Notes: generated by a model not told the origin, from the letters alone. A stretch of DNA of 64,000 bases from Massilia sp. S19_KUP03_FR1 (GCF_036688685.1 NZ_JAQQPS010000007.1:2013-66012), one strand, 5' to 3'; shown: positions 1,490-52,440, counted from the stretch's first letter. Made by a program: numbers and translations.

Positions 1490-2850
1490 GCGCCGATCAG
1501 GGCCTGGCCGCAGACGCGGACGGTCTGGCCGCTGATGCCGCCCGCGCCCGGTGTGGCGAGGAAGGTCACCAGTTCGGCCACGTCGCGCGGCTGGCCGCCC
1601 TGCTTGAGCGAATTGGCGCGCCGCCCCAGTTCGCGCAGCATGAAGGGCATGGCGTCGGTCATCGGCGTTTCGATGAAGCCGGGCGCCACCGCGTTGATGC
1701 AGATGGCGCGCGCCGCCAGCCGCGGCGCCTGGGCCGCGACGTAGCCGATCAGCGCCGCCTTCGACAGCGCATAATTGCTCTGGCCGACATTCCCGGCAAT
1801 GCCGCTGATCGATGCCAGGCACACGATGCGGCCGCCGTCGCGCAGCACGGCGCCGTCCAGCAAGGCGTGATCCAGCGCCGCCACCGCGCCGAAATTGATC
1901 TCCATGACCAGGTCCCAGTATGGCGCTTTCATATTGGCCAGGCGCCGGTCACGCGTGACGCCTGCATTGTGCACGACGATGTCGACGCCGCCGCATTGGG
2001 CGCGCAGGAAGGCGCTGATCTGGTGCGCGGCGCCCGCTTCGGCGATATCGAGCACCAATGGCGTGAAATTGAAACGGCTGCAGGCGGCGTGCAAGACGGT
2101 GGCCGCGGCGGGCACGTCGAGCGCCACCACGCGCGCACCTTCCTCCTGCAAGCGTTGCGCAATCGCCACGCCGATGCCGCGCGCTGCCCCCGTGACCAGC
2201 GCGACCTTGCCGGCCAGCGCCTGGCGCAACGGTGCGGCCTCGGCGCCGACGCCGCGCGCCAGGTGCAGCGCCTGCCCCGTCACATAGGTCGTGGCAATGC
2301 CGCAAAAAAAGCGCACCGGCCCGGCCAGGCGTTCGAGCGCATCCGGCGCGACATACACCAGGTTGACCGTGATGCCGCGCGGCCCCAGTTCCTTTGCCAG
2401 CGAGCGCACGAACCCTTCGATGCCGCGTGCCAGGGCCGCCGCGACCGGGTCGCCGGCCGCGCCCGGATCGGCCGCGGCAATCAGAACACGGCCGTTCAGC
2501 GCCAGGCGCCGCATCAGCGGGTGGAACGCCGCGTACAGGAGGCGCGTGGCATCGACGCTGGTGCAGGCGGTGGCGTCGAGCACGAAGATGTCCACCGGGC
2601 TGGTATCGGCCACCGCATCGGCGAGATGCAAGCGGGCTGGCGCGGCGCCGGCGGCTGCAAGCGCCGCGTCCAGGGCGCCGAGCGCATAACCGCCGGGCGC
2701 CTGGGCAGTGAGCACGCGCAGGCCGGCAAACGGCTGCGCCGTATAGCCGCCCGCAGCGCGCGCCAGCGCCACCGGCTTGGGCAGGCCGAGCGCGCGGACC
2801 AGGTGCCGCGTGAAGATATTTTCGTGCAGCCTGACCAGACCATCGCGCAT
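1486..2850 (-). CDS. High-molecular-weight SDR / 3-oxoacyl-ACP reductase (FabG4-like, N-terminal flavodoxin-like domain plus C-terminal SDR)
   Basis: 454 aa. C-terminal Rossmann motif ALVTGAARGIGVAIA, NAG, YxxxK (YALSKAAL). Same length and architecture as actinobacterial FabG4. Confidence 0.8.
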   Translation of the reverse strand: MRDGLVRLHENIFTRHLVRALGLPKPVALARAAGGYTAQPFAGLRVLTAQAPGGYALGALDAALAAAGAAPARLHLADAVADTSPVDIFVLDATACTSVDATRLLYAAFHPLMRRLALNGRVLIAAADPGAAGDPVAAALARGIEGFVRSLAKELGPRGITVNLVYVAPDALERLAGPVRFFCGIATTYVTGQALHLARGVGAEAAPLRQALAGKVALVTGAARGIGVAIAQRLQEEGARVVALDVPAAATVLHAACSRFNFTPLVLDIAEAGAAHQISAFLRAQCGGVDIVVHNAGVTRDRRLANMKAPYWDLVMEINFGAVAALDHALLDGAVLRDGGRIVCLASISGIAGNVGQSNYALSKAALIGYVAAQAPRLAARAICINAVAPGFIETPMTDAMPFMLRELGRRANSLKQGGQPRDVAELVTFLATPGAGGISGQTVRVCGQALIGA

Positions 2851-2971
2851 CGCCCGCTCCTTGTTTTATTGTTGAGTCTTCATTCTACGTGTTGCCAGCT
2901 TGAATAGAAAAAAACCCAATAGTGCATTTACGGTAGCATGCAAATTTACCTTGTGAAGGGACCTTGACGCC

Positions 2972-3655
2972 ATGTGCGGACGATTCGACCAAAGCCAGAC
3001 GGCGCGCTATTACGCCAGCGTATTCGGCTGGGCCGATGCGCTGTACGACAGCGCTGCCGATCCCTTGTACAACGTGGCGCCCGGTACCTACCGCCCGCTG
3101 ATGCATATCCAGGACGGCGTTCGGCGTGTCGACGACGTTTTCTGGAGTTACCGCGCCAAATGGGCGGAGGGCAAGGTGCCCATTTGCGTCAATGCGCGCA
3201 TGGACAAACTGGCCAATCGTTACTGGGCGCCGCTGCTCAAGAAAGGGCGCGCCGTGGTGGCGGCCGAGGGCTGGTATGAATGGACCGGCGAGAAGGGCCA
3301 CAAGCAGCCCTGGCACATCCACCGCAAGGACGGCCAGCCGCTGTTCATGCTCGCCATCGGCAACTTCGGCACGCTAGATGCGCAGCGCGCCGAACACCGG
3401 GCCGAGGCTGGCTTCGTGCTGGTCACCGACGACGCCGCCGAGGGCATGCTCGATATCCACGACCGCCGCCCGGTGGTGCTCAGCGCCGAGGATGCGGCGC
3501 TGTGGCTCGATCCGGCCATTTCGCCCGAGCAGGCGATCGAACTGGCGCGCCAGAGCGCGTTGAAGCCGGACCAGTTCGAATGGCACAAGGTCAGTCCGAT
3601 GCTCAACCGCGCCGGCAGCGACGGGCCGCAAGTGGCGCTGCCACTGGAAGACTGA
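2972..3655 (+). CDS. yedK: SOS-response associated peptidase (SRAP/YedK family, abasic-site processing protein)
   Basis: Hallmark N-terminus MCGRF (catalytic Cys2). Conserved VAPG, ARMD and EGWYEW-type motifs. Confidence 0.85.
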   Translation: MCGRFDQSQTARYYASVFGWADALYDSAADPLYNVAPGTYRPLMHIQDGVRRVDDVFWSYRAKWAEGKVPICVNARMDKLANRYWAPLLKKGRAVVAAEGWYEWTGEKGHKQPWHIHRKDGQPLFMLAIGNFGTLDAQRAEHRAEAGFVLVTDDAAEGMLDIHDRRPVVLSAEDAALWLDPAISPEQAIELARQSALKPDQFEWHKVSPMLNRAGSDGPQVALPLED

Positions 3656-8909: not shown

Positions 8910-10046
8910 TCACGCAGGAACCAGGCGCACCAGCGTGATTTCGGAGGGCGCGCCGAAGCGTTTCGGCGGGCCCCAGTAGCCGGTGCCGCGGCTGGTGTAG
9001 ACCCACATCGCGCCGAGCCGGTTCAGGCCGCTGACGTAAGGCTGCTGCAGCGGCACGAACAGGTTCCACGGGAAAAACTGGCCGCCATGCGTGTGGCCCG
9101 ACAGTTGCAGGTCAAAGCCGGCCGCCGCGGCGGCGGTCGCGCTGCGCGGCTGGTGCGCCAGCAGCACCCGCAGGGCCAGGCCCTTCGGCGCGCCATGGGC
9201 CGCCTGGTGCGGATCGCTCTTGTGTGCGGGATTGAAATGGTGCGCCGTGTAGTCGGCCACGCCGGCGATCATCAGGCTGGCCGTGCCGCGCGTACGCACC
9301 ACGTGTTCGTTCATCAGCACCGTCACGCCGAGGCGGCGCAGCTCGGCAATCCAGGCCTCCGCGCCGGAATAGTATTCGTGGTTGCCGGTGACAAAAAACG
9401 TGCCGTCCGGCGCGGACAGGCGGGACAGCGGCGCCGTGTGCCGGGACAGGCTGGCCACGCTGCCATCAACCAGGTCGCCGGTGATGGCGATCGCATCGGC
9501 CTCCAGCGAATTGACCTTGTCGACGATGGCGCTGAGGTACTTGTGCTTGATGGTCGGGCCGACGTGGATGTCGCTGATCTGGGCGATCGTGTAGCCGTCC
9601 AGCGCGGGTGGCAAGCCCACCACCGGCACATGGACGTGCTTGACGTGCGCCAGCCGGCGCGCATTGACCAGACCGACCAGGGTGACGGCCACGGCCAGCA
9701 CAGGAACGCCGACGGCTGTTTCGCGCGCCGCATCTGGCCAGGTGAAGGGCAGCAGCTGCAGCGCCAGCAGCAGCAGGTCGCGCCCGAAGGTGGCGACCAG
9801 CAGCGATGAAAACAGCCCCATTGCCAGCAGTCCGGCCCAGGGCAGCTGTTCGGCGCCACGGCGGCGCTTGAAGTATGGCGACAGCAAACCGGTGGGCACC
9901 AGCAGCGTCGACGCCACCAGCAGCACGATGCCGGTCAGCGCGCCGGCAATACCCAGCCCCATGGCGGGAATCAGGCGCAGACCGATATACAGATGCAGGA
10001 TGACCAGCAGGAACAGAACGGTGGCAATGGTGCGGCGTGGTGGCAT
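8910..10046 (-). CDS. Membrane-anchored calcineurin-like metallophosphoesterase
   Basis: N-terminal TM helices then GDxHG (DIHVGP), GDLVDG and GNHEY phosphoesterase motifs. Start taken at MPPRR; an alternative upstream start at 10088 is possible. Confidence 0.8.
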   Translation of the reverse strand: MPPRRTIATVLFLLVILHLYIGLRLIPAMGLGIAGALTGIVLLVASTLLVPTGLLSPYFKRRRGAEQLPWAGLLAMGLFSSLLVATFGRDLLLLALQLLPFTWPDAARETAVGVPVLAVAVTLVGLVNARRLAHVKHVHVPVVGLPPALDGYTIAQISDIHVGPTIKHKYLSAIVDKVNSLEADAIAITGDLVDGSVASLSRHTAPLSRLSAPDGTFFVTGNHEYYSGAEAWIAELRRLGVTVLMNEHVVRTRGTASLMIAGVADYTAHHFNPAHKSDPHQAAHGAPKGLALRVLLAHQPRSATAAAAAGFDLQLSGHTHGGQFFPWNLFVPLQQPYVSGLNRLGAMWVYTSRGTGYWGPPKRFGAPSEITLVRLVPA

Positions 10047-10145
10047 GAAGGATCCGGATTGTGCAAAAGAAGCTTGTACATGGGGCAATCAAGTCAATCC
10101 GCAAGCGCACCCGACAAAGGAATGTTGCATCAATTTAGGTAAATG

Positions 10146-10175
10146 TTACAAAGGGCTATTGACATGTAATAATCT
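10146..10175 (+). promoter_or_regulatory. Putative sigma70-type promoter upstream of the glycine-zipper gene
   Basis: TTACAA/TTGACA-like -35 boxes and an AATAAT -10-like box in the AT-rich stretch about 100 nt upstream of 10275. Confidence 0.3.
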
Positions 10176-10274
10176 GTATTAGCGCGTGGCGTGCGGCAGG
10201 TGCAGGCATATAGTCCATCCATGCCCTGGCGCTTAGCGATCATTCGATCACCGTTAAGGGAAAAGGATAATGCC

Positions 10275-10739
10275 ATGTTCAAGAACAAAGTCTTTGGTGC
10301 GGTGCTGGTAGCCGCGGCCGCTGTTGCCACGGCAACCGTTTCGACCTCGGCCATGGCGCAAGATCGCGGTGTGAATACCGCCGTCGGCGCGGTGCTCGGT
10401 GCGGCAGTCGGCGGTAGCGCCGGTGGCCGCAACGGCGCCATTGTCGGTGGCGTACTCGGCGCCGCGGTCGGTAATTCGATTGGTTCCCGCAACGACCGCT
10501 ATTACGATAATCGCAACTATGACAACCGCGGCTACGCCAGCGTCGGTTACTACCAGCCAGCGCCAGTGTATGTCGAACCGCGCCCGGTGTACGTTGAATC
10601 GCGTCCGGTCTACTACGCCGAGCCGCGCTACTACGCACCGCCAGTGGTCTACTACGGCGGCGGCCGTGGCTACTACGGCGGTGGCCGGGGCTACCACGAT
10701 CGCGGCCACGGCGACCGCGGTTGGCACCACGGCCGTTAA
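10275..10739 (+). CDS. Glycine-zipper (Gly-zip 2TM / 17-kDa-antigen-like) secreted protein with Tyr/Pro-rich C-terminal repeats
   Basis: SD AAGGA upstream. Signal peptide. GAVLGAAVGGSAGG..GGVLGAAVGNSIG glycine zipper. PVYVEPRPVYVESRPVYY and YYGGGRGYYGGGRGY repeats. Confidence 0.8.
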   Translation: MFKNKVFGAVLVAAAAVATATVSTSAMAQDRGVNTAVGAVLGAAVGGSAGGRNGAIVGGVLGAAVGNSIGSRNDRYYDNRNYDNRGYASVGYYQPAPVYVEPRPVYVESRPVYYAEPRYYAPPVVYYGGGRGYYGGGRGYHDRGHGDRGWHHGR

Positions 10740-10760
10740 GCTGCACCCGCTTGCAAACGA

Positions 10761-10788
10761 ACCGCGTCCTGGACGCGGTTTTTTTTCG
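10761..10788 (+). terminator. Rho-independent terminator (bidirectional-looking)
   Basis: ACCGCGTCC-TGGA-CGCGGT hairpin followed by a T8 run. Confidence 0.7.
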
Positions 10789-10890
10789 TGGCGCTGTTCG
10801 CGCACATCGGGCAGTCTTCCCGTCAGCCGGGCTCGGCAGTGGCAAGCAGCAAGCGTAATGCCTTCGGTATTTGCTGGCCGCGCCGCGAAC

Positions 10891-11134
10891 CGGCTCAGCC
10901 AGCTCTTGAAGAAGGCATCCCAGCCGTTCACACTCTGGAGGTGAATCGCGCCGCGCGCGCGTTCTCCGGCCGCACATTGCCAATGCGTGCCGGATGCCGC
11001 TGCCTGCGCGAAACGCCGGTAGGCCATCGCGCCATCTGTGAAGGATGAAAAAAGTCATCACCGGCTGAGCGAATCCGACACCAGAAAAAGAAGAACATCA
11101 CTTGCCGTATATGCAACTACGCTTTTACACTGTG
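10891..11134. repeat. About 245-bp direct repeat, copy 1 (about 80% identical to 13967..14213)
   Basis: Alignable block ending in the conserved TATATGCAACTAC-N-TTTTACACTGTG. The minus strand carries a MAY.. ORF start, but its reading frame is not conserved between the two copies. Confidence 0.7.
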
Positions 11135-11644
11135 CCTCGAGCGACTTGCGCCCTCGGCCAAAAGCTGTGGTTCGCCGCTAGCCCAAATCTCTCTTTATTG
11201 CGCAAAAAATTATGCATGCCAGGCGCTCGCGATAGCAAACAACGGTGCTGGCGATCAGCTGCTCTTCCTTCGTTCTAACGACTGGTACGAGGCAGAAGTT
11301 TACTACTGGTCACACGAAACCGGTGACTTGACTAAGGTGGCAGAGGATTTTGCCCAGCTCGAACGTCTGTACATGCCGCAAGAAACTGGCCGTGCTGCTC
11401 CACCGTCCGCTTTGGGCAGGGAGCTGCCTGGCTTGATAGTTTGCGGGTTTTTCGCCTTGGCAACCCGCTATGCTTGCTCGACAGGCCGAAACAGGGCAAA
11501 AGCTGTCACACCACGCCCAACTAGACATCCATAGTGAACGGATACAAATTTTGTTCGTAAATTCATCGGTACAAAAATGGTAATCGCCAGTAGTTTCAAG
11601 ATGATACTATTAGTTTCTAATTAATTTTGAATCGGTGTCGTCGC

Positions 11645-12265
11645 ATGAATTCGTCAACAGTATCCGGTGTAGTCACTCGCCGTACCTCCCGGGCCGTTTT
11701 CGACATCCTGCTGTTTTGGTTGGCGTTTCACTCTGTTGCGCAAGCCGACAGCCAATATCTGCAACGCGGTGCAGGCGCGGCAGGCGGCATCGTCGCAGGC
11801 ATTTACATACACGAGTTAGGCCATGCGGCCGTGTCCGACTTCGCCGGTGCAGAACACATCCGCATCCGCATCCCGGGTGCGCACTGCAAGCTGCTTTGCG
11901 GGCAGACAGATGTCACCTGGTCGGCGCGTCCCAGCGCCCCGCAGAGGCGCCTGATTACTGTGGCTGGTTTTGTGAGCAGTAACGTGGCGGCAGAAATTAT
12001 GCTTCAGCACGAAAGCTTGGCCCGCTCCGGCTTCGGCCAAGGGTTGATCGCGACCAACTTGTATTCGAACGCGGTGCACGTGTTTTCGTATTACACCAAG
12101 GTGCGCGGTCGGAACGGCTATCAAGGCAACGATATCGATTCCTTTGAATTGGCAGGTGGCAACCCCCACCTGTTGTCGGCGGGGCTGCTGGCCTATTCGG
12201 CGTATGCCCTGCATCGCATGCACAAGAAACATATACCGGTGCTGTTCGTTAGTGCCCGTTTCTGA
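11645..12265 (+). CDS. Putative secreted HExxH zinc metallopeptidase-like protein
   Basis: Signal peptide (LLFWLAFHSVAQA). IHELGHAAV motif. Low-GC context. Confidence 0.5.
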   Translation: MNSSTVSGVVTRRTSRAVFDILLFWLAFHSVAQADSQYLQRGAGAAGGIVAGIYIHELGHAAVSDFAGAEHIRIRIPGAHCKLLCGQTDVTWSARPSAPQRRLITVAGFVSSNVAAEIMLQHESLARSGFGQGLIATNLYSNAVHVFSYYTKVRGRNGYQGNDIDSFELAGGNPHLLSAGLLAYSAYALHRMHKKHIPVLFVSARF

Positions 12266-12507
12266 CGGGTGATCGCGTCTCGTGCTCTTGCCAAAGGCGA
12301 AAGTTCGCGTCTTGGCCCAGCGCAGCTCCCTTTTGGCTTTCTGGTTTGCGAAAATGCGCCACGACTTTAGCCAGGGTACAGAGGTATTTTCCCTCTCGAA
12401 CCTTCCCTTTGGCTGTTGGATTCGCCACTACATCGGTAGTCACCTTTCAGCGATCATGTTTCGAACGGCTGCGATGGGTCGGATAGATACTGTAGGGCCA
12501 GCCTACG

Positions 12508-12570
12508 AGCTTTTACTGTTTACATTCTGATATGCCGAGCCGAAAACAGCCACGTTCGGCCAACTGTGGA
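12508..12570 (+). repeat. Structured intergenic repeat family, partial copy A (3' half)
   Basis: GATATGCCGAGCCGAAAACAGCCACGTTCGGCCAA. The hairpin CCGAA...TTCGG replaces the inner palindrome. Confidence 0.4.
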
Positions 12571-12627
12571 TACAGTTACAATGTAATAAATATTACTTTG
12601 GAAATACCCAAATTCTGAAAGAAGCAA

Positions 12628-13167
12628 GTGAAAAAATCCTCTCCAACGTGGAGTGATGTCAAAACGAAGTTGGGGGACTTCGACCGCGCTGGCATGCTGG
12701 CCTTGGTGCAGGATATGTACGCCGCCAGCAAAGAAAACCGATCATTTCTGCAGGCTCGATTTGGCCTGGGCGCGGATACCCTCAAGTCCTACAAAACGAC
12801 GATTGCGCGTTGGCTTTGGCCGGACATCTCCAGGGGCCAGGACACTTCGATTTCTAAGGCCAAGAAAGCAATAGCTGACTACAAGAAGGCCGTCGGACGA
12901 CCGGAGGACCAGGCTGAACTGATGACCTTCTATTGCGAGCAGGCGGCAGGCTTTTGCCGCGATGTTGGCTTCTCGGATGAGCGCTTTTTCGTTTCGTTGA
13001 TGGGCATGTTCAGCAAGGCGCTGAAATTGACCCTAACCCTGGCCCCTGTGCCGCGCGATAGTTTGCTGGAGCGTCTCGACGAAGTGAGTCGAATCAGCCA
13101 GGACTTTGGCTACGGGGTGGGTGACGAAATGAACGACCTGCTCGACGAGTACTCGGCTAATGACTGA
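12628..13167 (+). CDS. Hypothetical protein (islet cassette gene)
   Basis: 179-aa ORF with GTG start, unremarkable composition and no recognisable domain. Stop abuts the next ORF. Confidence 0.45.
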   Translation: MKKSSPTWSDVKTKLGDFDRAGMLALVQDMYAASKENRSFLQARFGLGADTLKSYKTTIARWLWPDISRGQDTSISKAKKAIADYKKAVGRPEDQAELMTFYCEQAAGFCRDVGFSDERFFVSLMGMFSKALKLTLTLAPVPRDSLLERLDEVSRISQDFGYGVGDEMNDLLDEYSAND

Positions 13168-13284
13168 GTGGACGGCGACTATCGGTCGATTTCGGCCAGA
13201 ACCGGACTTTCGCAGATCGATAGCGTTCGGCCAACAGCCGCCGTTCGCAAACAGTACTCCCGACGCCATTTCAATGATCACGAC

Positions 13285-13800
13285 ATGACCTCAATCGACG
13301 AAACTTCAAGAGCTATTTTCAGCGCTGCTCGAGAAGGCGACGCAGATACGTTGCTGAGTCTGATAGGCACGAGCCAAGACCGTTTACACGCGCAAACGCC
13401 TTTCGGAACACTTTTGCACATTACGTACGCACGCGGCGATATCGCACTTGTTAAGGAGTTAATTAACCTTGGCGCCGATATTGATCGACGCGGCGGCACG
13501 TTCGACGGTACCGCAATCAATCTGGCAGCATCAAAAGGACAGGTCGAGATCGTCGAGTATCTACTTGAATGTCAGGCCGAGTTGGACGTGAGCGATCCGG
13601 AGCGCAAACTTCTTTGGGGCGGAATCGACTCCGGCAGCGTCGAGATCGTGAAACTACTCGTGGCAGCAGGGATCGACGCAACGGTCAGATATTCAGGTAA
13701 GAACATGACGAATATGGGCGCACTCGATTTTGCTATCGAGAGGGGGCAGGTTGAAGTCGCCGAGTTTCTACAGACTCTGCCTTCGATGCGTGTCAATTGA
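13285..13800 (+). CDS. Ankyrin-repeat protein
   Basis: About 4 ANK repeats (TPLHITYARGDIALVKELINLGADID, TAINLAASKGQVEIVEYLLE, GALDFAIERGQVEVAEFL). ATG at 13285; the ORF is also open from a GTG at 13168. Confidence 0.75.
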   Translation: MTSIDETSRAIFSAAREGDADTLLSLIGTSQDRLHAQTPFGTLLHITYARGDIALVKELINLGADIDRRGGTFDGTAINLAASKGQVEIVEYLLECQAELDVSDPERKLLWGGIDSGSVEIVKLLVAAGIDATVRYSGKNMTNMGALDFAIERGQVEVAEFLQTLPSMRVN

Positions 13801-13966
13801 GAGGCGCGTGTTTTGCCGGCGAACCTCGCTGCCGTAGCAATCGAGGCAACGTCTGGTTTTGGGCGAAACCGACTGGTCAATCACACACGGCTGGCCAGTG
13901 AAATTTTTATCACGTGTAGATCGCAACGAAACAATGACCTCCGCCGCGTCAGTGACGGCTATTAAC

Positions 13967-14213
13967 CGGCGCAGCCAGCCCTTGAACCGGGCATGCCAGC
14001 CGTATTCATTCGGGATCTGGATCGCGCCTCGCGCGCGTTCTCCGGCCCGCACATTGACAAATGCGTGGCGGATGCCGCTGTCCTGCGCGAAATGCCAGTA
14101 GGCCATCGCGCCATCTGTGGAGGATGAAAAAAGTTATCACGGGCCGAGCAGAACCGTCCGCAGAAAAATAAAAACATCCCTTGCGGTATATGCAACTACT
14201 CTTTTACACTGTG
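13967..14213. repeat. About 245-bp direct repeat, copy 2
   Basis: Aligns with 10891..11134. It carries three 1-nt indels relative to copy 1, which shift the MAY-frame ORF. This is consistent with a non-coding or decayed element. Confidence 0.7.
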
Positions 14214-14520
14214 TCTACGCTGTGCAGAAGAAGCATTCAGAACGGATTAAACGTTGGGACGAGGGACGCGCAGTACGTAGAAACAACCCCAAAAATTTTC
14301 AATGATTTGCAGACATGCGTCTCAGCTGCGAAGTTGCTTTGGACGGGGCCTACGTAAGTGCGCTGCACGTGCAGTCCACTTGGCTTCTGAGCCGCGACTT
14401 AATTGATCCGCCTTGGATCGGCAGCCGCCTGTCGAGACAGTCTGCAACTTTTCCAGCTCGGTAACGTGCTATGGTCAATCAAGAGGCTGGATTTTTCCAC
14501 GACCTGCACCAACCAATTCA

Positions 14521-14952
14521 ATGAGGACCAAGTTGGAGAGTGATCGCATAGCAGAATTCGTCGGCCAGACAAATGTATCTCCTGCGCAGTTGTCCGCGGC
14601 TGAGCGCGATACTGTAGTGCGGATTCTCAACAGCCAATTCGCCGTCAACGCAAAATCACTCAGGCCATGGGACGCAACGAATGCCCCAGGCGGCGTACAA
14701 ACTGCAATCGGTTGTGCGTTGATATCAAATTACGTAGCTGACTCCCCGTGTCTGGTATTTTCGTCGGGTGCACCTTCGGTATGGAACTTTTCCAACGGGT
14801 CGGATTTACTGCTTTTCTTAAAGGCTTCGCCACCTTTCGAATTCTATGTCTGCGATGACTTAGCAACCTACATGCTTTGTTATACCGATCATGACTTCAT
14901 TATTGGATGGGGGAAGAGCACTGCATGGGTGGAGCAACTTCGGGCAGATTGA
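14521..14952 (+). CDS. Hypothetical small protein (immunity-protein-like)
   Basis: 143-aa ORF in the low-GC islet. It is followed by a structured repeat. No SD; a TTG at 14413 is an alternative start. Confidence 0.4.
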   Translation: MRTKLESDRIAEFVGQTNVSPAQLSAAERDTVVRILNSQFAVNAKSLRPWDATNAPGGVQTAIGCALISNYVADSPCLVFSSGAPSVWNFSNGSDLLLFLKASPPFEFYVCDDLATYMLCYTDHDFIIGWGKSTAWVEQLRAD

Positions 14953-14989
14953 TCCATCAAACGGACTTGCCGGCATGTCCGCTCAGGGT

Positions 14990-15076
14990 CGTTTCCGGTC
15001 TGTCCTGGCTGCCGCTGAATTTTCGCCATGGCATGCTGTTATGCCGAGTCGACCGGCCGAATTCGGCCAAAAGCGG
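14990..15076 (+). repeat. Structured intergenic repeat family, copy B
   Basis: 5' box GTTTCCGGTCTGTCCTGGCTGCCGCT. CCGCT(gaa)TTTT/AAAAGCGG outer stem. Perfect inner palindrome CCGGCCGAATTCGGCC. 3' GGCCAAA. Confidence 0.6.
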
Positions 15077-15130
15077 ACATAAACTAACGGACCGGCTCTG
15101 TCATTACCATAATCTTCAAGATGTACACAC

Positions 15131-15544
15131 ATGAGAAAAATGTACACTGTACTCCTGCTGTCGACTTTCTTGGTGGGCGCCCGTGCGCAAGCTGAACATA
15201 AAGAAGACTGCGATCGGGCTGAATACTCCCAGCAGTATGCTGCCGGCTTTAATCGCGAGCTAAATGGCGCGCTGGATAGATTCAAAAACCAGGATAAAAG
15301 CTCTCGATCCAAGTTGGACGGGATGAAAGCTGCCAGTGATTTCAAGGTGCAACTTTTGTCGCTGGACGGTATTCCTATGATAGCCGGGGGCAACAAAGCT
15401 GCGGAATTGCGCGCGACGTGTTTGCTTGGGCCAAATGCGATCAGCAAAGCTGACGTTTTGTATGCTGTCACGGAGCGGGCGTGGAAGTTACTCGAATCCA
15501 AGGTCGCAGCGGAAGCGCAAGTGAAAAAAGTTACCATGCCATAA
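15131..15544 (+). CDS. Small secreted hypothetical protein
   Basis: Signal peptide MRKMYTVLLLSTFLVGARAQA. 137 aa. Lys/Glu-rich. Confidence 0.55.
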   Translation: MRKMYTVLLLSTFLVGARAQAEHKEDCDRAEYSQQYAAGFNRELNGALDRFKNQDKSSRSKLDGMKAASDFKVQLLSLDGIPMIAGGNKAAELRATCLLGPNAISKADVLYAVTERAWKLLESKVAAEAQVKKVTMP

Positions 15545-15590
15545 AGTACGTTAGTGCAGGCCTGGCTCGCTAGCCAGATCCGCTTTGGGA

Positions 15591-15680
15591 CGTTTTCTGC
15601 CTGTGGCGCCACCCGCTCGATTTTCAACGTGCCCACCTGCTATGCCCGGCCGAAAGACCGGGTTGGGCCAAAATCGCTCC
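15591..15680 (+). repeat. Structured intergenic repeat family, copy C
   Basis: CGTTTTCTGCCTGTGGCGCCACCCGCT box. CGATTTT/AAAATCG outer stem. Inner hairpin CCCGGCCGAAAGACCGGG. GGCCAAA tail. Stem sequences differ from copy B but keep the pairing. Confidence 0.6.
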
Positions 15681-15702
15681 TGGATCAAGAAAGGAACTGC
15701 AA

Positions 15703-15866
15703 TGCCTCAGCTTTTTGCGCATGACCAAATGGACGTTTGGCACGACGGTTCTGCGATTTGTGTTATCGCTGTAGGTTCACATGGTGATCCATTAGATCTA
15801 TCCGAAAGCGAAGTCGAAGCTCTCATTGCGAAGCTGCAGGCGTCGCTGAAAAAAGCGCGTTCTTGA
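15703..15866 (+). CDS. Small hypothetical protein (54 aa)
   Basis: SD AAGGAA 5 nt before the ATG. Predicted amphipathic C-terminal helix. It sits between repeat copies C and D. Confidence 0.4.
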
Positions 15867-15892
15867 TCTGTCGGCCTGGAATTCCGCTATGG

Positions 15893-15975
15893 GTTGTTTC
15901 CGGCCTGTGGCGCCGGCCGCTGTATTTCTGACCTGGCAACTCGCCATATTCGGCCAGTAGCTGACAAAAGGTGCC
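15893..15975 (+). repeat. Structured intergenic repeat family, copy D (3' part degenerate)
   Basis: GTTTCCGGCCTGTGGCGCCGGCCGCT 5' box is shared with copies B and C. Confidence 0.45.
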
Positions 15976-16119
15976 GGGATATGCCCACCGATTGTCGGGA
16001 GTGAGCTCGAGAACGCATTTGATACACAACAATATTAATTTTACGACAAGTATGGCGTGGTCAATGATTGCCGGACGGTACGGCATGTCGCTGCTGCCAT
16101 CGATACGGGAACCGACACA

Positions 16120-27602: not shown

Positions 27603-28040
27603 ATGGGCAGAAACCTCGACGACATCATCCACAGTTTGCCGGCTGAACGCCAGGCAAAGATTGCCCGCGCGGCCGACCAAAAAGTCGCGGACATGCTGGC
27701 CCATGCCACCACACTCGCCGAATTTCGCAAGGCTGTCGGCAAGACGCAGGCCGAGGTTGCAAGCGAGCTCGGCATCGGGCAGAACGCCGTCTCACAGATG
27801 GAGCAGCGTGCCGACACCTATGTTTCCACGCTGCGACGTTATCTGAAGTCGCTCGGGATGACGCTCGAATTGTCGGTGGTCGACAAGGATGGCGATCGGT
27901 ACGACTTGCCGTATTTCCTTCCCTGGCAGGCAACTGGACTGGAAGTGAATCAACAAGCGGCGTCCTACGCTGCCGAAAAAACATCCAGCGCGGCCACACC
28001 CGCAGTGCGCGCGAATCGGCGCAAGCCCGGCGCAGCATAA
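27603..28040 (+). CDS. XRE-family HTH antitoxin (HigA-like)
   Basis: HTH LAEFRKAVGKTQAEVASELGIGQNAVSQME. It starts 10 nt after the toxin stop and has a good SD. Confidence 0.7.
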   Translation: MGRNLDDIIHSLPAERQAKIARAADQKVADMLAHATTLAEFRKAVGKTQAEVASELGIGQNAVSQMEQRADTYVSTLRRYLKSLGMTLELSVVDKDGDRYDLPYFLPWQATGLEVNQQAASYAAEKTSSAATPAVRANRRKPGAA

Positions 28041-28057
28041 AAACACCTCAAACGAGC

Positions 28058-28735
28058 TCAGCCTGCCCGCGAAATCACACGCACCGGCGACAGGCAATGG
28101 TCGCGAAAGCCCATGCGTTTGTACAGGCCGTGCGCCGCCGCGTTGTCGTGCATGACATGCAGGAACGGCGTCTCGCCACGCATCAGCTGCAGGCGCGCCA
28201 GTTTGGCCACCAGCCGCCGCGCCATGCCGCGCCCCGCGTAATCGGGATGCGTGCAGACGCCCGACACCTCGCGCAAGCCATCTGCAGCGAGGCGTTCGCC
28301 GGCCATCGCGATCAGGCGCCCGCCTTCAAAATAGCCGAAGTAGTCGCCCAGTTCGATGGTGCGGATCCCGAAAGGTCCCGGCCTGGTCAGTTCGGCCAGC
28401 GCCAGTGCGGCCTGGGCGTGTTCGGGACCGAGTTTCACGGCGTCCGGCGCCTGGTCGTTGGCGGGAATCGGCGCATCCCACACCATGCGGTACATGCTCG
28501 CTTCGTGGTCGAGGCGCCAGCCGTGCGGCACCGGGCCGCTCCAGCCATCGCAGTAGATTTGCTCGCCCGGTGCGCACAGGTGCGCCAGCGCGATGAAGTC
28601 GGGCGAGGCAGCCTGCTCGAAACCCGCGATGGGCGAAAAACCCGGCGCGTAACGGCGCACTTCGCCGCTCCCGACAGCGTATTCGGCTTGCGGACCCTTG
28701 AGGGAATTCCAGAAAATATTATCGAGCAGGCTCAT
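28058..28735 (-). CDS. GNAT family N-acetyltransferase (FR47-like)
   Basis: C-terminal acetyltransferase core (GVCTHPDYAGRGMARRLV). It lies 6 nt downstream of the kinase-FGE gene. Confidence 0.7.
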   Translation of the reverse strand: MSLLDNIFWNSLKGPQAEYAVGSGEVRRYAPGFSPIAGFEQAASPDFIALAHLCAPGEQIYCDGWSGPVPHGWRLDHEASMYRMVWDAPIPANDQAPDAVKLGPEHAQAALALAELTRPGPFGIRTIELGDYFGYFEGGRLIAMAGERLAADGLREVSGVCTHPDYAGRGMARRLVAKLARLQLMRGETPFLHVMHDNAAAHGLYKRMGFRDHCLSPVRVISRAG

Positions 28736-28741
28736 GGGGCG

Positions 28742-31009
28742 TTATTGTTGGTTAATTGATATTGACGACTCTAGCATGCGCTCCGAATGCATCAACTCGC
28801 GTACGACACGAAATCCGACGATATCGTTCGCCATTGTGGCGGAAAAGCCATTTCGTAATGCAGAGCGCAGATAGCGCGGGTGATACAGCCAGCAGCCGCC
28901 ACGCAAAATATGGCGGCTCTGGTCGCCGCCGTTGCGCCAGGCACTGCCGTCCGTCGGCGCGCCGTCGTAGGTATCGTGCACCACATCCTGGACCCATTCC
29001 CAGACGTTGCCGTGCATGTCGAGCAGGCCCCACGGGTTCGGTGCGAACGCCCCCACCGGCGTGGTGCCGCGCCTGAACACGCCGGTGGCGCCGCCATTGT
29101 ACGAAAAGCTGGCATCGTAATTGGCCTGGCCGGCATGGATCGTGTCACCGGTGGAAAACGCCGTGCGCGTGCCGGCGCGGCAGGCGTATTCCCATTCCGC
29201 CTCGGTGGGCAGGCGGTAGCGCTGGCCGGTCTGCTTGCACAACCAGACCAGGTATAGCTGGACGTCATTCCACGACACGCCAACCACGGGGTGCGTATCG
29301 GTTTGCGTGAAGCCGGGTGCTTCCCAGTCGACGTCGCCGTGGTGGCGCCAGCCGGTGGCGCTGGCAAAGCGGCGCCACTCGCCTACCGTGACGGGCGTGC
29401 GGCCCATGGCCAGCGGCCGCTCGATGCCGACCCAGTGCTGCGGCGTTTCGCGCGCGAGCCAGATGCGCTGCGCGCCGGCCGCCAAGGCGATCGCGCGCTC
29501 GTGCTCGGGCGAACCCATGTGGAAACGCCCGGTCGCGATCAGCACCAGTTCCGGGGCAGCTGCGCCATCGGCGAATGTGTCGCGCAAGATGCCTTGCGGG
29601 TCCGCCACCGGGCTGTCAGGCGACGGCAGCAGCTGCGCCAGCTCGGCCTGGTTGCGCGCGGCCGCCTCGGCGCGCGCGCGCTGTTGTTCGGACAGGTAGG
29701 CGGCGGCCGCTTTGGCCTGGTTGGCCTTGCGCTGGGCTTCGTCCTGCTCGGCTTGCGCCTTGGCCGCATCCAGCGCGCGCCGTTCGCGCAGCTGCTCGCG
29801 CAGGATCACCCGGCGTGCGCGCCTGGCCGTCTCGGCCTCGCGCTGGGCGATCTGCTCCTGCTCCTTGCGCTGGCGTACCACCAGCGCCCGCGCCAGCACG
29901 GCCTGCTCTTCCGCCTTTCTACGGGCCACCTGTTGGGCCGCCTGTTTTTCGGCACGGACCTGGGCCGCCACCTGGCGCGCGACCAGGTCGTCGGCCGATG
30001 GTGGACGCGGACCACGCAGGCGCGCCAGCAATTGCGTCACGCTGGGCTGGCGCAGCTTGGGATCGAAGGCAAAGCCCTCCTGCAGCGCGCCCCACTGGGC
30101 CGGGGTAAGCGAGCCCGGCGACTGGTCCGGCAAATGCGCCAGTTCGGCGCGGCCGGTGAGCATCTGGTAAATCATGACGGCCACCGCATACACGTCCAGC
30201 GTGCGCACCGGCACCATGGCGGCGTTATTTGATTCCGGCGCGCGGTACACCAAGGTACCCGAATCGGCCGGCGCCTCGCGGCTGGCCAACTGCTCCGGCT
30301 CGGCGCCACGCGAGCGCGCCGCGATGCCGAAGTCGAGCAGCTTGACGTCACCGCCCTTCGTGACGAACACATTGGCCGGTTTGATGTCGCGGTGGACCAG
30401 GTGCTGCTTTTCCCACGCATAATCGAGCGCCACGCCGACCGGCTCCAGCAGGTTCAACACGCGTTCGAGCGGCAGCGCGCCGGCATGCGACATCAGGCCG
30501 GCCAGGTCTTCGCCGTCGAGGTATTCCATGATGATGAAATAACTCATCGTCGCCGGATCCTGGGCCCAGTCGTAGACACGCACGATGTGTTCGTGCGCCA
30601 GCGCGCGCGCGCGCGTGGCTTCTTCGACCAGCAAGCGGGCGAAGTGCGGGCTGTGGGTCAGCTGGGGCGGGATGATCTTCAATGCCACCACGGCGCTGTG
30701 ACCGAGTTCGGCGTGGGTGGCCAGGTCAAGGGCCTGCCACACCTGGCCCATGCCGCCCAGCGCCACCATGCGCTCGAGCCGGTAGCGGCGGTTTGCGGGC
30801 CCCACTTCCTGGCCGGTCATCAGGCCGATCTCGGTGCCCGACCCTGGCGCGCTGCCAGGCCCCGACCCCGCCGCGCCGGGCGTCCGGCCCGGCGGTGCGT
30901 ACTCCGCATCGAGAATGGCGTTCTTGCGGCGCTCGAACTCGTCCCTGCTGAGCAGGCCGTCGTCGTGCAGCGCGCGCAGTTCGCGGATCTTGTCGATGGC
31001 GGTGTGCAT
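28742..31009 (-). CDS. Multidomain SHOCT - Ser/Thr kinase - coiled coil - FGE-sulfatase (SUMF1-like) protein
   Basis: N-terminal SHOCT-like (LRALHDDGLLSRDEFERRKNAIL). Kinase motifs HRDIKPANVFV, DFGIA and APE. Long Ala/Glu/Arg-rich coiled coil. C-terminal FGE motifs (VSWNDVQLYLVWL, RLPTEAEWEYACRAG, HGNVWEWVQD). Confidence 0.85.
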   Translation of the reverse strand: MHTAIDKIRELRALHDDGLLSRDEFERRKNAILDAEYAPPGRTPGAAGSGPGSAPGSGTEIGLMTGQEVGPANRRYRLERMVALGGMGQVWQALDLATHAELGHSAVVALKIIPPQLTHSPHFARLLVEEATRARALAHEHIVRVYDWAQDPATMSYFIIMEYLDGEDLAGLMSHAGALPLERVLNLLEPVGVALDYAWEKQHLVHRDIKPANVFVTKGGDVKLLDFGIAARSRGAEPEQLASREAPADSGTLVYRAPESNNAAMVPVRTLDVYAVAVMIYQMLTGRAELAHLPDQSPGSLTPAQWGALQEGFAFDPKLRQPSVTQLLARLRGPRPPSADDLVARQVAAQVRAEKQAAQQVARRKAEEQAVLARALVVRQRKEQEQIAQREAETARRARRVILREQLRERRALDAAKAQAEQDEAQRKANQAKAAAAYLSEQQRARAEAAARNQAELAQLLPSPDSPVADPQGILRDTFADGAAAPELVLIATGRFHMGSPEHERAIALAAGAQRIWLARETPQHWVGIERPLAMGRTPVTVGEWRRFASATGWRHHGDVDWEAPGFTQTDTHPVVGVSWNDVQLYLVWLCKQTGQRYRLPTEAEWEYACRAGTRTAFSTGDTIHAGQANYDASFSYNGGATGVFRRGTTPVGAFAPNPWGLLDMHGNVWEWVQDVVHDTYDGAPTDGSAWRNGGDQSRHILRGGCWLYHPRYLRSALRNGFSATMANDIVGFRVVRELMHSERMLESSISINQQ

Positions 31010-33090: not shown

Positions 33091-34071
33091 TCAGAAAATT
33101 CCGATTTGCGCGACACAGGCCAGGCTGGCGCCACGGGCGCGCACCGCATCGGCAAACTCTGGCGGCAGCATGGTCTGCCAGGCTTGCGGCAGCAAAATCC
33201 GGTCGCCCGGCGCGGCTTCGGCCGCGATCAGGGCGCATTTCGGCACTATCCCTTCGACCGTGTCGACCTGGCCCGTGTGCCAGCCATGCGAGGTACCCGA
33301 GGCGATGATGCGGCCGCGCGCCACATAGTCGCGCCCGCGCGCCAGCCGGTCGGCCAGCACCAGCGCCAGTTCGTACGAATTGCCCTGGAAGCGCTGCTGG
33401 CCAAACCTGATGGTGGTGCGCCAGCGCCCGGGGACGCAGCGGTCGAAATCGCGCGCCCCCAGCAGCGCCTGGCGCACTGCCAGCTGGCGCGTGACATCCA
33501 GGCCCGGGACGGTCACGGCGTCGTCGTCAAGGTCGCCCGCCAGCAGCGGATACACGCTGACCTCGACCCAGCACAGGCTGTCGTTGATGCCGCCGCTGTG
33601 CAGCGGGAACCAGGCGCGCGCGCTCGACACCACGTGCGCCGCATCCGGCTGGCCGGTCAGCGCGCCCAGGTGCGCCATGCCGCCTGCGCCGCCGAGCAAG
33701 GCGGGCGGGTCGGCGTCGATGGTGTGGCCGTCGATACGGCCCAGCTGCCACTGGTCGGACCAACCGTTGGCGCACGGCTCGTTAAGGTGCACCAGGCCGC
33801 GCACCATCCGGTCGGCCAGCACGGCGGCGAGTTCCCAGTCACGCGTGCCGGGGTCGATGTCGATGCTCAGCACGACCTGATCGCGGCTGTCGATGCGCGG
33901 CTCGGTGTGGCGTGCCAGGCGCACCACCTGCTGCATGCGCTCGGCCAGCCCCGGCACGCCGCTGCACTTGACGTCGGCACGGCCGGCGCGCGGGCGCCGC
34001 GTCGCCGTGACGGTGGCAAAGCTGCCGTTGGCCAGCAGGCAGCGGCAGGCGGCACGATCGGGACAGTTCAT
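33091..34071 (-). CDS. Lon/S16-like Ser-Lys protease domain protein with internal duplication
   Basis: GNSYELALVLADRLARG (Ser motif) ... IIASGTSHGWHTGQVDTVEGIVPKCALIAAEAAPGDRILLP (Lys motif) resemble the Lon C-terminal domain. An earlier half-repeat DWELAAVLADRMVRGL. ATG overlaps the upstream stop (ATGA). Confidence 0.55.
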   Translation of the reverse strand: MNCPDRAACRCLLANGSFATVTATRRPRAGRADVKCSGVPGLAERMQQVVRLARHTEPRIDSRDQVVLSIDIDPGTRDWELAAVLADRMVRGLVHLNEPCANGWSDQWQLGRIDGHTIDADPPALLGGAGGMAHLGALTGQPDAAHVVSSARAWFPLHSGGINDSLCWVEVSVYPLLAGDLDDDAVTVPGLDVTRQLAVRQALLGARDFDRCVPGRWRTTIRFGQQRFQGNSYELALVLADRLARGRDYVARGRIIASGTSHGWHTGQVDTVEGIVPKCALIAAEAAPGDRILLPQAWQTMLPPEFADAVRARGASLACVAQIGIF

Positions 34072-49927: not shown

Positions 49928-50002
49928 TGAAGGCGCCTGCGTGCAGGCCAGCGACGCCCCGCAGCGGGGATGGTAATCGTTTAAACGCTGAACCGCGCCC
50001 GC

Positions 50003-51103
50003 TCAGCGCGGCGCCATACGCCGTTCCATCGCCACTGGCCACATGCCCGGCAGAGCGGGGGCGACACGGCGCTCAACCCGGACTGTCGTCTTGCTGCGCC
50101 CGCCGATGGCAAGCGAGAATGGGCCGGGCATGACCCGCATCGCCATTTTGTAGAGTGCGATTAAGATTGCCACGACGACGAATGGCATCACGACCGTGAA
50201 TACAGGAACCGGAACCGGCGCGCCTGCCAATTTGTTCAATTTCCACAGGCCGAACAGTAAGGGGGCGTGAGAAATGAAGATAAAAAAGCTGTAGCGGCTC
50301 TGTTTTACAGCCCATTGACCGAAGCTGGTTTCGACCAGCACGGCGCTGATCGGCCAGATCAAGAATGGCGCCACCAGACGCAGGACGAGGATACTACCGT
50401 CACCAAACCACACTGCGTACATACATAACGCAACGAATGCTGCAAATGCGGGATAAGCGTATCGATCGATCGCGCGGAGATTAGATTGATGCAATGCAAT
50501 TATTCCGCCCGCATAAAACATGACCGGCATATCGCCGCGCAAAATCAATAAGCCGTCCAGGTCGGACAAGAAGAATACCGCAACGGCGGCCAGTCCGACA
50601 AAAGGTGTGCGGCGCAAAACCCATCCGAACAGTGGCGTCAATAGAATGAGCACCATCAAGTCGCGCAGGAAATACAGCGGAAGATTGATCGGATAGCCAA
50701 ATATGCCAAACATGGAAGTCAGCCAGGCGCGCGCATCCTGCATGGCGGCGCGGTCATAAACAATCGACGCGCCAAAAAAACGATCAGCCAGGACATCGAT
50801 CAACAGCATACCCAGGTTAAAGATCAGGAAGGGCAACAGCAGCGTGCGGGCTTTTTTGGCAATCAGCTTGCGAAAATTAGTATCCAGGCCAGATTTGAAC
50901 AGGCAATAACCTGAAATAAGCGTCAACACGGGCACCGTGGCGCGGAAAAAACCATTCTGGAAAAATGCGACCAACAGCGGAAACCATTCATTTGGCACCG
51001 CGCCATATGGCGCGTACGGTGGCGTATGTACCACGACGACTCCGAAAATCATCAGGAATCGAAGCATATTGATTCGCTGACTGACCGCACCTTGAATTGC
51101 CAC
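50003..51103 (-). CDS. Acyltransferase family 3 membrane protein (lower-GC gene)
   Basis: MLRFLMIFGVVVVHT N-terminal motif. Polytopic. GC about 50% against a 67% background. It is followed by a 450-bp AT-rich intergenic region. Confidence 0.75.
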   Translation of the reverse strand: MAIQGAVSQRINMLRFLMIFGVVVVHTPPYAPYGAVPNEWFPLLVAFFQNGFFRATVPVLTLISGYCLFKSGLDTNFRKLIAKKARTLLLPFLIFNLGMLLIDVLADRFFGASIVYDRAAMQDARAWLTSMFGIFGYPINLPLYFLRDLMVLILLTPLFGWVLRRTPFVGLAAVAVFFLSDLDGLLILRGDMPVMFYAGGIIALHQSNLRAIDRYAYPAFAAFVALCMYAVWFGDGSILVLRLVAPFLIWPISAVLVETSFGQWAVKQSRYSFFIFISHAPLLFGLWKLNKLAGAPVPVPVFTVVMPFVVVAILIALYKMAMRVMPGPFSLAIGGRSKTTVRVERRVAPALPGMWPVAMERRMAPR

Positions 51104-51651
51104 GCGATTTCCTTTGTAATTACATGCTGAATCTGAGATGGGATCAGAAAGATACCACGAAATTCACATAGTTGCCCAAATAATATTATGGTTTTTTCTA
51201 GGTAATTTTTTACGAGCCGGTTTACGATTGCCGTTTCTGAAGACCGCTTCCGAGACACGCCCCCCGCCCGTATTGACGGCTGAGAAACCAGTGCCAATGG
51301 ATGAGTAATGCTGCTGTGCAAGATGTGTACATTATAATATTAATTTACGCATGTCCAGCGTAGCTCTATTGAATCAGTATAAAAGTGTGTCCTGTTGAAC
51401 AAGCGGCGCACGCCAGTTCAGCCATGTCAGCAGTTTTTCTGTCGCGTGTTCTTGTGCGGGTTTTGACACGGGGTTCGTGGTTTCAAGAGGCTTTCACGAT
51501 ATGCAACCGGGCGCCCGGCGATCAAGTCGAGCAAATGCCTGAGCCGAATTGCCGATCGGGTATCATCAGCGCCACCTATCGCTTTCTGGTGCAATCATTG
51601 ATTGCCGCCGTGGCGCTGAAACCCGCATCGATCAAGAGTCTGGAGCAAAAA

Positions 51652-52440
51652 ATGAAGATTGCCACCTTTAACATCAACGGCATTGGCAGCCGCCTGCCGG
51701 CCCTGCTCCAATGGTTGGAAGAAACCCAGCCGGATGTCGCCTGCCTGCAGGAACTGAAAGCCCCGACCGAGAAATTCCCAGAGCAAGCGCTGCGCGATAT
51801 CGGCTATCACGCGATCTGGCAGGGCCAAAAAAGCTGGAATGGTGTGGCGATCCTGGCACGCGGCGTGCAGCCGCAGGAAGTGCAACGTGGCTTGCCGGGT
51901 GACACCAGCGACGAGCAAAGCCGCTACCTGGAAGCGGCTGTCAACGGCGTGCTGATCGCATGCCTGTACCTGCCCAACGGCAACCCTGCGCCCGGCCCCA
52001 AGTTCGACTACAAACTGGCCTGGATGGAGCGCTTCATCGAGCGCGCCGCCGGCCTGTACGCCAGCGGCGCGCCGGTGGTGCTGGCCGGCGACTACAACGT
52101 CATTCCGACCCCTGACGACGTCTACAAACCCGAACGCTGGCTGACAGACGCCCTGTTTCGCCCCGAAACCCGGGCCGCATTCGAGCGCCTGATGGCGCAG
52201 GGCTGGCTCGATGCGCTGCGTCACATGCATCCGGACGAAACGATCTACACCTTCTTCGACTATTTCCGCGAAGCCTACAAGCGCAACGCCGGCCTGCGCA
52301 TCGACCATTTATTACTCAGTCCGGCCGTCGCCCGGGGTCTCGTTGCAGCGCAAGTCGACCACGATGTGCGCGGCCGCGAGAAGCCGAGCGACCACGCGCC
52401 GACCTGGATCGAACTGGATATGACGAAAGTGCACGGTTAG
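51652..52440 (+). CDS. xth: Exodeoxyribonuclease III
   Basis: MKIATFNINGI ... CLQELK ... full-length ExoIII similarity. The upstream in-frame ORF extension is not coding. Confidence 0.9.
   Translation: MKIATFNINGIGSRLPALLQWLEETQPDVACLQELKAPTEKFPEQALRDIGYHAIWQGQKSWNGVAILARGVQPQEVQRGLPGDTSDEQSRYLEAAVNGVLIACLYLPNGNPAPGPKFDYKLAWMERFIERAAGLYASGAPVVLAGDYNVIPTPDDVYKPERWLTDALFRPETRAAFERLMAQGWLDALRHMHPDETIYTFFDYFREAYKRNAGLRIDHLLLSPAVARGLVAAQVDHDVRGREKPSDHAPTWIELDMTKVHG

Follow-up and report, generated by a model that had tools for sequence, protein, structure and literature searches.

LonL, a tandem Lon-fold protein encoded beside an SPFH gene in a conserved cassette of Massilia

Introduction

SPFH proteins are universal, most of the bacterial ones have no known function, and the clearest of their mechanisms involve a partner protease, as in the pairings of FtsH with HflK/C, of NfeD/STOPP with stomatin and of m-AAA with prohibitin. 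Here we describe LonL, which Massilia sp. S19_KUP03_FR1 encodes next to an SPFH gene, and the gene cluster to which it belongs. The DNA analysed (the window) is a stretch of 64,000 nucleotides of contig NZ_JAQQPS010000007.1, and coordinates are counted from its first letter.

Several described systems provide a frame for this locus. The SPFH pair HflK/C forms a cage that regulates the FtsH protease (PMC13086221), and proteases of the NfeD/STOPP type work with stomatins, for instance in the PH1510/PH1511 pair of Pyrococcus horikoshii and the YbbJ-QmcA cage of E. coli (PMC3795559, PMC13086221, PMC2636767). Hinderhofer et al. recorded NfeD partners for SPFH subfamilies 1, 2 and 5 only and none for the other subfamilies (PMC2636767). 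In B. subtilis the cytosolic SPFH protein YdjI/SamI, encoded in pspA-ydjGHI, has been linked to envelope-stress signalling (10.64898/2026.02.06.704340, PMC8581546). On the side of the Lon fold, the CalpL/CalpT/CalpS system has a signalling protease that cleaves an anti-sigma factor: CalpL, a SAVED-Lon protein of type III CRISPR systems, cuts a small partner from the same operon, with a transcription factor encoded adjacent to it (10.1101/2024.05.08.593097, PMC12751052). Our targeted literature searches found no paper describing a Lon-fold partner of SPFH proteins.

Results

LonL is a member of a previously unannotated family in which a pseudo-protease domain and a protease domain of the Lon fold stand in tandem, encoded in a conserved SPFH-containing cassette. 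That the open reading frame is a real coding gene is indicated by the G+C content at its third codon positions (GC3, 0.88) and by a frame plot in 150-nucleotide windows, in which the frame switches at about the ATG at 34071, where LonL starts; the translation is identical (100%, full length) to a 326-residue hypothetical protein of Massilia sp. S19_KUP03_FR1. It contains the string GNSYELALVLA with Ser232, IVPKCALIAAEAA with Lys278 and, further upstream, DWELAAVLADRMV with Asp78. Two Lon-fold domains fill all 326 residues, with no AAA+ module, and Pfam finds no AAA family, NfeD or SAVED domain in the protein. There is no hydrophobic segment (maximum 19-residue hydropathy 1.04). Sequence searches of Pfam, NCBIfam, PADLOC and the PDB gave no usable match for LonL.

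The fold is nevertheless that of Lon. Structural comparison places LonL in the Lon_C/S16 fold, as the initial annotation, made from the DNA sequence, had proposed; it scored 16.7 against RadA, 15.8 against ComM, 15.7 against the E. coli Lon protease domain (1rr9), 15.4 against B. subtilis LonB, 14.6 against BrxL and 13.5 against CalpL, with about 155-160 residues superposed at 2.4-2.8 Å. A Foldseek search of the PDB returned the same set (E ~5e-7).

The family is small: a library search over 1.84 billion representatives yielded 191 clusters at E <= 0.001, and of these approximately 190 clusters at 50% identity roughly 100 or more have the tandem domain. We counted conservation in 105 C-terminal domains from family representatives clustered at 50% identity. 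Ser232 is present in all 105 and Lys278 in 104, both are invariant in a separate alignment that reaches 29% identity, and the expectation that orthologs would retain the two residues was thus borne out. Between them lies an A-S/T-G motif (Ala257 102/105, Gly259 105/105) that corresponds to the M-T-G-E of Lon, and Phe155-Pro156, Arg207, Asp241, Ala257 and Pro295 are each kept in more than 100 of the representatives. The motif LA(L)xxAD(R/K) that follows Ser232 is specific to the LonL family. When the 105-sequence family profile was aligned by hhalign with residues 585-784 of E. coli Lon (E = 1.2e-4, probability 54%), Ser232 fell on Ser679, an alignment for which the sequence comparison provides moderate support, and Lys278 lies in the first turn of the helix equivalent to that of Lon. 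By fold and dyad, LonL belongs with the S16 Lon proteases, although it fails the curated sequence models and has no ATPase, and we consider it likely that LonL is a Lon-fold Ser-Lys protease.

The first half of LonL is a degenerate copy of the same fold. Comparison of residues 1-143 with residues 144-326 by BLASTP gave a match beyond chance (E = 9e-6, 45% identity over 38 residues), a hidden Markov model of the C-terminal domain matches the N-terminal domains of LonL relatives with E-values down to 3e-26, and the order beta-beta-alpha-beta-alpha-beta is seen in both halves. A few of the relatives retain the Ser in their N-terminal domains; in the Massilia protein Asp takes its place and the Lys helix has been lost. 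The initial annotation had noticed an upstream repeat lacking the catalytic residues, and a degenerate duplicate it is, only not of half a domain: the duplication is ancestral and covers the whole domain, the first copy having been shortened in the Massilia lineage to leave a pseudo-protease domain.

LonL does not travel alone. The cluster in the window comprises, in order of transcription, a gene for a PBP-like protein, three genes without recognised family (g406, g225 and g357), LonL, the SPFH gene and a gene for a Ser/Thr kinase-FGE protein (Table 1). We assembled 160 related loci, 80 from genomes, all Oxalobacteraceae, and 80 from metagenomes, where a scan for distant relatives returned mostly Massilia-like loci and five with less than 50% identity to the LonL of the window. 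Among the genome loci the SPFH gene is present in 79, g357 and the kinase gene in 78 each, g406 and g225 in 76 each and the PBP-like gene in 75. In the metagenomes, each of the 59 loci whose downstream flank is long enough has an SPFH-family gene after LonL, and upstream of LonL the informative metagenome loci contain g357 (62/62), g225 (57/57) and g406 (47/47). The adjacency of LonL and an SPFH/flotillin gene reported for the window is accordingly genuine, with a Band_7 match of 29.4 bits for the neighbour, and it is conserved in 79/80 and 59/59 loci.

The cassette is also kept where LonL identity has fallen to 29-48% (L081, L083, L086, L089, L098, L099, L103 and L144), and the SPFH gene directly follows LonL in L083/L084, L089, L098, L099, L103 and L144; the cluster layout as a whole extends from the Oxalobacteraceae to relatives of ~30-35% identity. 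One divergent cassette (L086, 1..21182) has a shuffled order with the SPFH gene upstream of LonL; its neighbours encode two caspase (Peptidase_C14)-FGE proteins, two more caspase-domain proteins, SH3_3, AAA ATPase and Ser/Thr kinase proteins and a 1114-residue Transpeptidase protein, and therefore the kinase, FGE and PBP-like partners recur despite the different gene order. The linkage of LonL to SPFH is robust, yet looser than its link to g357, g225 and g406. A 689-residue protein encoded after LonL in L085 was considered as a possible SPFH protein and rejected. By eye, the proteins encoded after the cassette in L083 (6907..8631) and L085 (1886..3955) have FHA-like ends, as might be expected if they act in phospho-signalling together with the Ser/Thr kinases of the cluster.

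Other members of the family have a single Lon-type domain; some of these carry a transmembrane helix and finish in a ..DAY tail, and in others the domain is joined to a weak match for HEPN_Swt1. These relatives sit in triads of a protein X (~300 residues), a protein Y (~180 residues) and LonL, and Y is homologous to g225 (hhalign, 97.8%, E = 1.2e-12). No SPFH gene was seen in the sampled single-domain operons, several of which are on short contigs. Since Y, the g225 homolog, accompanies relatives with no visible SPFH gene, g225 rather than SPFH is the most widely conserved partner of LonL-type proteases. A helix-turn-helix-like segment forms the end of both X and g406, none of X, Y, g406 and g225 has a Pfam match, and none of the 10 database relatives of the X family is annotated.

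The ending ..P.(D/T).AY is found on the single-domain membrane-anchored relatives (L091 1..912 and 2396..3376; P0226, P0249 and P0267), and in L091 a protein encoded three genes upstream has the similar ending ..TIDTSAY; the shared ..AY could be a docking, sorting or cleavage signal. In the fused relatives P0255 (L092 8001..11060) and P0251, which are ~1000 residues long, the weak HEPN_Swt1 match, below the Pfam cut-off, is combined with a LonL-type domain and an extended helical tail. GmrSD and SNIPE/T5orf172 genes nearby give them a defence-island-like setting, and no PADLOC model matches the fusions themselves.

Table 1. Features of LonL and of the surrounding gene cluster in the window.
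Feature	Position	Strand	Remarks
PBP-like protein, 1081 residues	36852..40097	-	first gene of the cluster; short gap to g406
g406, 397 residues	35590..36783	-	family not recognised; ATGA overlap with g225
g225, 179 residues	35054..35593	-	fold not recognised; GTGA overlap with g357
g357, 329 residues	34068..35057	-	stop overlaps the LonL start (ATGA)
LonL	33091..34071	-	326-residue tandem Lon-fold protein; translation holds all motif strings
LonL N-terminal domain, residues 1-145	33637..34071	-	degenerate, shortened Lon-fold copy
Asp78 codon	33838..33840	-	occupies the Ser position in the N-terminal domain
LonL C-terminal domain, residues 146-326	33094..33636	-	complete Lon-type domain; Ser232, Ser258, Gly259, Lys278
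Ser232 codon	33376..33378	-	codon checked
Lys278 codon	33238..33240	-	codon checked
LonL to SPFH gene junction			94-nucleotide gap after the LonL stop
SPFH protein, 659 residues	31017..32996	-	8-nucleotide gap to the kinase-FGE gene
Ser/Thr kinase-FGE protein	28742..31009	-	last gene of the cluster; starts 8 nucleotides after the SPFH stop

In the Massilia cluster, overlapping start and stop codons join LonL to the three genes upstream, g406, g225 and g357, and no terminator-like site was found in the gap between LonL and the SPFH gene. None of these three upstream proteins matches any Pfam, NCBIfam or PADLOC model, and PDB sequence searches with the upstream partners were unproductive too, among them that for g406, whose start we set at MRLPGTRYQE by alignment (A3). 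The best-conserved segment of g406 is a C-terminal helix-turn-helix-like stretch, LPTMQQLA..SLPTLRKRRDAAIARL. The model of g357 suggests an SPFH-like N-terminal domain followed by a C-terminal four-helix bundle of the MLKL/HeLo-like kind; the SPFH-like assignment derives from the predicted structure, and a comparison of the profiles of the two proteins, g357 and SPFH, was negative.

In the SPFH protein itself, a divergent SPFH domain is combined with a long coiled coil, and a zinc ribbon lies at the C-terminus. It matches Pfam Band_7 at 29.4 bits (gathering cut-off 23.6, E = 1e-6), and the domain is called divergent because just four of 18 homologs reach Band_7 (E <= 0.01) and two reach Band_7_1 (YdjI-like); zinc ribbons are found in 10. 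No convincing transmembrane segment was detected in it, and its family profile returned only zinc-ribbon noise from PDB sequences. An N-terminal zinc ribbon with the consensus MFGFGG..CPRC....GYC..CG opens most of the homologs. The protein of the window starts at MRESMMVEMANAG and has no such ribbon, and a close relative (L001), with a gap of similar length, apparently also goes without.

At the downstream end of the cluster, the kinase-FGE protein has an N-terminal SHOCT, a coiled coil and a C-terminal FGE-sulfatase domain (Pfam Pkinase 5.6e-31, FGE-sulfatase 3.6e-57). The PBP-like protein at the upstream end has a single N-terminal transmembrane helix; its C-terminal transpeptidase domain (Pfam Transpeptidase 7.6e-13) keeps the motifs SSFK (SxxK), SLN (SxN) and KTG, and the protein may serve to sense the cell wall or beta-lactams. 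A region of ~700 residues between its transmembrane helix and the transpeptidase motifs has no family match.

Two genes that abut the cluster, labelled by eye as GNAT-like (28058..28735, minus strand) and XRE-type helix-turn-helix (27603..28040, plus strand), were left out of it, as they were found in 5/80 and 0/80 of the related loci, respectively; they look like a local insertion. Elsewhere in the window, the G+C content dips to 0.52-0.57 at 10000..16000 and to 0.54 at 50000..52000, compared with ~0.67 over the remainder, and these low-GC stretches are probably acquired islands. Open reading frames there include those for a small glycine-rich protein (10191..10739, plus strand) and an ankyrin-repeat-like protein (13168..13800, plus strand). 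No tRNA, rRNA or Rfam match was found in the whole window, so such genes do not explain the low-GC stretches.

Discussion

The Massilia operon suggests a signalling unit, made up of scaffold and protease, of a kind with no earlier description. As the enzyme of the g406-g225-g357-LonL cassette, LonL would be a soluble, ATP-independent and site-specific endopeptidase with the Lon (S16) fold. The two SPFH-type proteins, g357 and the 659-residue SPFH protein, would assemble into an oligomeric scaffold or cage in which the protease is held and gated, and on a signal from the envelope-facing parts of the system (the PBP-like sensor and the kinase) LonL would cut a specific site in a partner encoded in the cassette. 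The best candidate for that substrate may be g225, as it is the sole partner common to all sampled LonL-type operons. Through this cut g406, possibly an output protein that binds DNA, would change in activity, in a manner that resembles the logic of CalpL, CalpT and CalpS. We favour this composite model tentatively, as a near-even call that falls slightly on the side of doubt.

A number of our results weigh against this model or against parts of it. At the level of the protein, Pfam Lon_C (PF05362) does not match LonL at E <= 1, nor do the NCBIfam Lon models, so that the profile comparison foreseen in the initial annotation succeeded against E. coli Lon with the family profile and failed against the curated Lon_C model; with a narrower LonL family profile the comparison with E. 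coli Lon is not significant either (E = 0.34). Additionally, hhalign pairs Lys278 with Lys724 of Lon after inserting a 2-residue gap. By eye an ungapped alignment fits better, with Lys278..Pro295 matching Lys722..Pro739 of Lon at the same spacing, and because this spacing agrees we infer that Lys278 is the equivalent of Lys722. Catalysis by LonL, as well as its substrate, the scaffold role of the SPFH-type proteins, the signal and the transcriptional output, are things that we infer from the genes and their conservation. At the level of the locus, most of the 160 loci come from one bacterial family and the flanking genes are often common to the Oxalobacteraceae loci too, so much of the co-occurrence probably reflects shared ancestry and vertical inheritance. 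In two distant loci on short contigs (L081 and L085) a kinase or FHA-like protein gene, and not an SPFH gene, is next after LonL. Finally, there is no statistical support for g406 being DNA-binding or sigma-like, nor for a relation between it and X: X and g406 are not significantly similar by hhalign (E = 0.075), and the C-terminus of g406 resembles sigma region 4 of RpoE weakly (E = 0.12). A sigma factor identity for g406 and X was tried in this way and also by searching databases with the X family; the results were weak or uninformative, and we carry it forward as a candidate role only.

There are several other ways to read the locus. For instance, LonL might stand in for NfeD/STOPP, binding the downstream SPFH protein and trimming its C-terminal region to control the assembly of the SPFH oligomer, a substitution that the initial annotation had in mind. 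Such a role would suit the position of the SPFH gene, which comes directly after LonL in 79 of the 80 genome loci and in every informative locus from the metagenomes, among them relatives at 34-48% identity; and, as no NfeD partner is known for SPFH subfamilies beyond 1, 2 and 5 (PMC2636767), a different protease partner is conceivable. However, the SPFH protein differs from the stomatin-type targets of NfeD proteases, because it shows no clear membrane segment and has zinc ribbons, and because a few of its homologs match Band_7_1; LonL for its part lacks the membrane region and the OB-fold NfeD domain that tether STOPP to stomatin. Moreover, LonL is translationally coupled to g357, g225 and g406, whereas the SPFH gene is 94 nucleotides or more away, and it is a g225-like partner that the single-domain relatives have kept, with no SPFH gene seen in their sampled operons, several of them on short contigs. 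The context of the cluster thus argues for a logic other than replacement of NfeD/STOPP, which we regard as unlikely.

More doubtful still are two further readings. The Lon-like domains of RadA and ComM have lost the Ser-Lys dyad, and LonL could similarly be an oligomerisation or ligand-binding module of the RadA/Sms and ComM kind, with its Ser and Lys binding a ligand. The failure of Pfam Lon_C to recognise LonL and the clear degeneration of one of its two domains would both be in keeping with this. Yet Ser232 (105/105) and, probably, Lys278 (104/105) occupy the catalytic positions of Lon and the A-S/T-G motif between them is kept, and the degenerate N-terminal domain displays what relaxed selection on the dyad looks like within the same protein; we therefore think a non-protease role very improbable. 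Alternatively, the cluster might be a cell-suicide or defence device in which cleavage by LonL activates a toxin, for example by releasing the C-terminal four-helix bundle of g357 so that it damages membranes, much as proteases activate bacterial gasdermins. The caspase-FGE proteins and AAA ATPase of the distant locus L086, and the weak HEPN_Swt1 fusions of single-domain relatives near GmrSD and SNIPE/T5orf172 genes, lend this idea some colour. Against it, no PADLOC model matches any core protein, and the Oxalobacteraceae cluster is fixed, syntenic and apparently vertically inherited between conserved flanks, unlike mobile defence islands. A label as a defence system, which we tried, is unsupported given the absence of PADLOC matches and the synteny across the family, and we rate this account as a long shot.

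Elements of these ideas can be combined with the favoured one of an SPFH-scaffolded signalling protease. LonL and the two SPFH-type proteins might form a cage-enclosed, ATP-independent protease in which an envelope signal, received through the PBP-like protein and the kinase, leads to one irreversible cut that frees either g406 from g225 or the MLKL/HeLo-like bundle of g357 to attack the membrane, the X-Y-LonL triads then being a wider signalling or defence family. This bolder version is improbable as a whole, and if it were true a cage-enclosed LonL would represent a new type of SPFH-gated proteolytic switch in bacteria. The LonL cassette would likewise, if the favoured model is correct, offer a compact, soluble and genetically tractable system for the study of SPFH-gated proteolysis. 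The LonL family also links to single-domain membrane-anchored and HEPN-fused relatives, which are maybe signalling or defence proteases.

How LonL relates to the known Lon-fold proteins can be stated in some detail. It resembles E. coli Lon (S16, 1rr9) in the placement of its Ser at the same helix N-cap and of its Lys at the start of a later helix. It differs in lacking the AAA+ module and the Lon N-domain, in having a tandem domain with the first copy inactivated, in a sequence too divergent for Pfam Lon_C and in the family-specific LA(L)xxAD(R/K) after the Ser; the AAA+ module that LonA and LonB have fused to the protease is thus missing here. In RadA/Sms and ComM the Lon-like domains are appended to ATPase or helicase modules and are not proteases, in contrast to the strongly conserved Ser-Lys of LonL. 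CalpL offers the closest parallel in operon logic, in that LonL travels with the small conserved g225/Y and with the larger, possibly helix-turn-helix g406/X, and on this analogy LonL may cut g225 to switch g406. LonL nevertheless has no SAVED domain and no CRISPR context (no Cas protein was found among the seven cluster proteins scanned against Pfam, NCBIfam and PADLOC), and the domain that accompanies its protease domain is a dead Lon copy. A pair of ECF sigma factor and anti-sigma factor is known in the Calp systems, while for g406/g225 this is a candidate role, and Calp systems lack the SPFH, kinase and PBP-like partners of the LonL cluster.

The SPFH side of the cluster invites a second set of comparisons. 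Like NfeD/STOPP, LonL is a putative Ser-Lys protease whose gene adjoins an SPFH gene in a conserved operon; NfeD/STOPP proteins, however, have a ClpP-type (S49) fold, membrane helices and an OB-fold NfeD domain, of which LonL with its Lon fold has none, and the SPFH partner of LonL appears soluble and has zinc ribbons. To our knowledge no protease has been assigned to the YdjI system of B. subtilis, where YdjI carries a zinc ribbon. The Massilia SPFH protein, apparently soluble, with a zinc ribbon and with Band_7_1 matches in two of 18 homologs, looks weakly YdjI-like and not stomatin-like; these matches and the absence of a convincing transmembrane segment bring it closer to the soluble YdjI/SamI class than to stomatin, although it is much longer and has an extended coiled coil. 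With HflK/C-FtsH the cluster shares two different SPFH-type proteins encoded with a protease, g357 and the SPFH protein flanking LonL. FtsH is an ATP-dependent membrane zinc metalloprotease and HflK/C are membrane-anchored and face the periplasm; by analogy with HflK/C-FtsH and with stomatin-STOPP (PMC13086221, PMC3795559), the two SPFH-type proteins may scaffold or cage LonL. Should this prove true, LonL would be a third, unrelated protease fold to be found with SPFH proteins, and scaffold-plus-protease would be a recurrent design rather than a historical accident.

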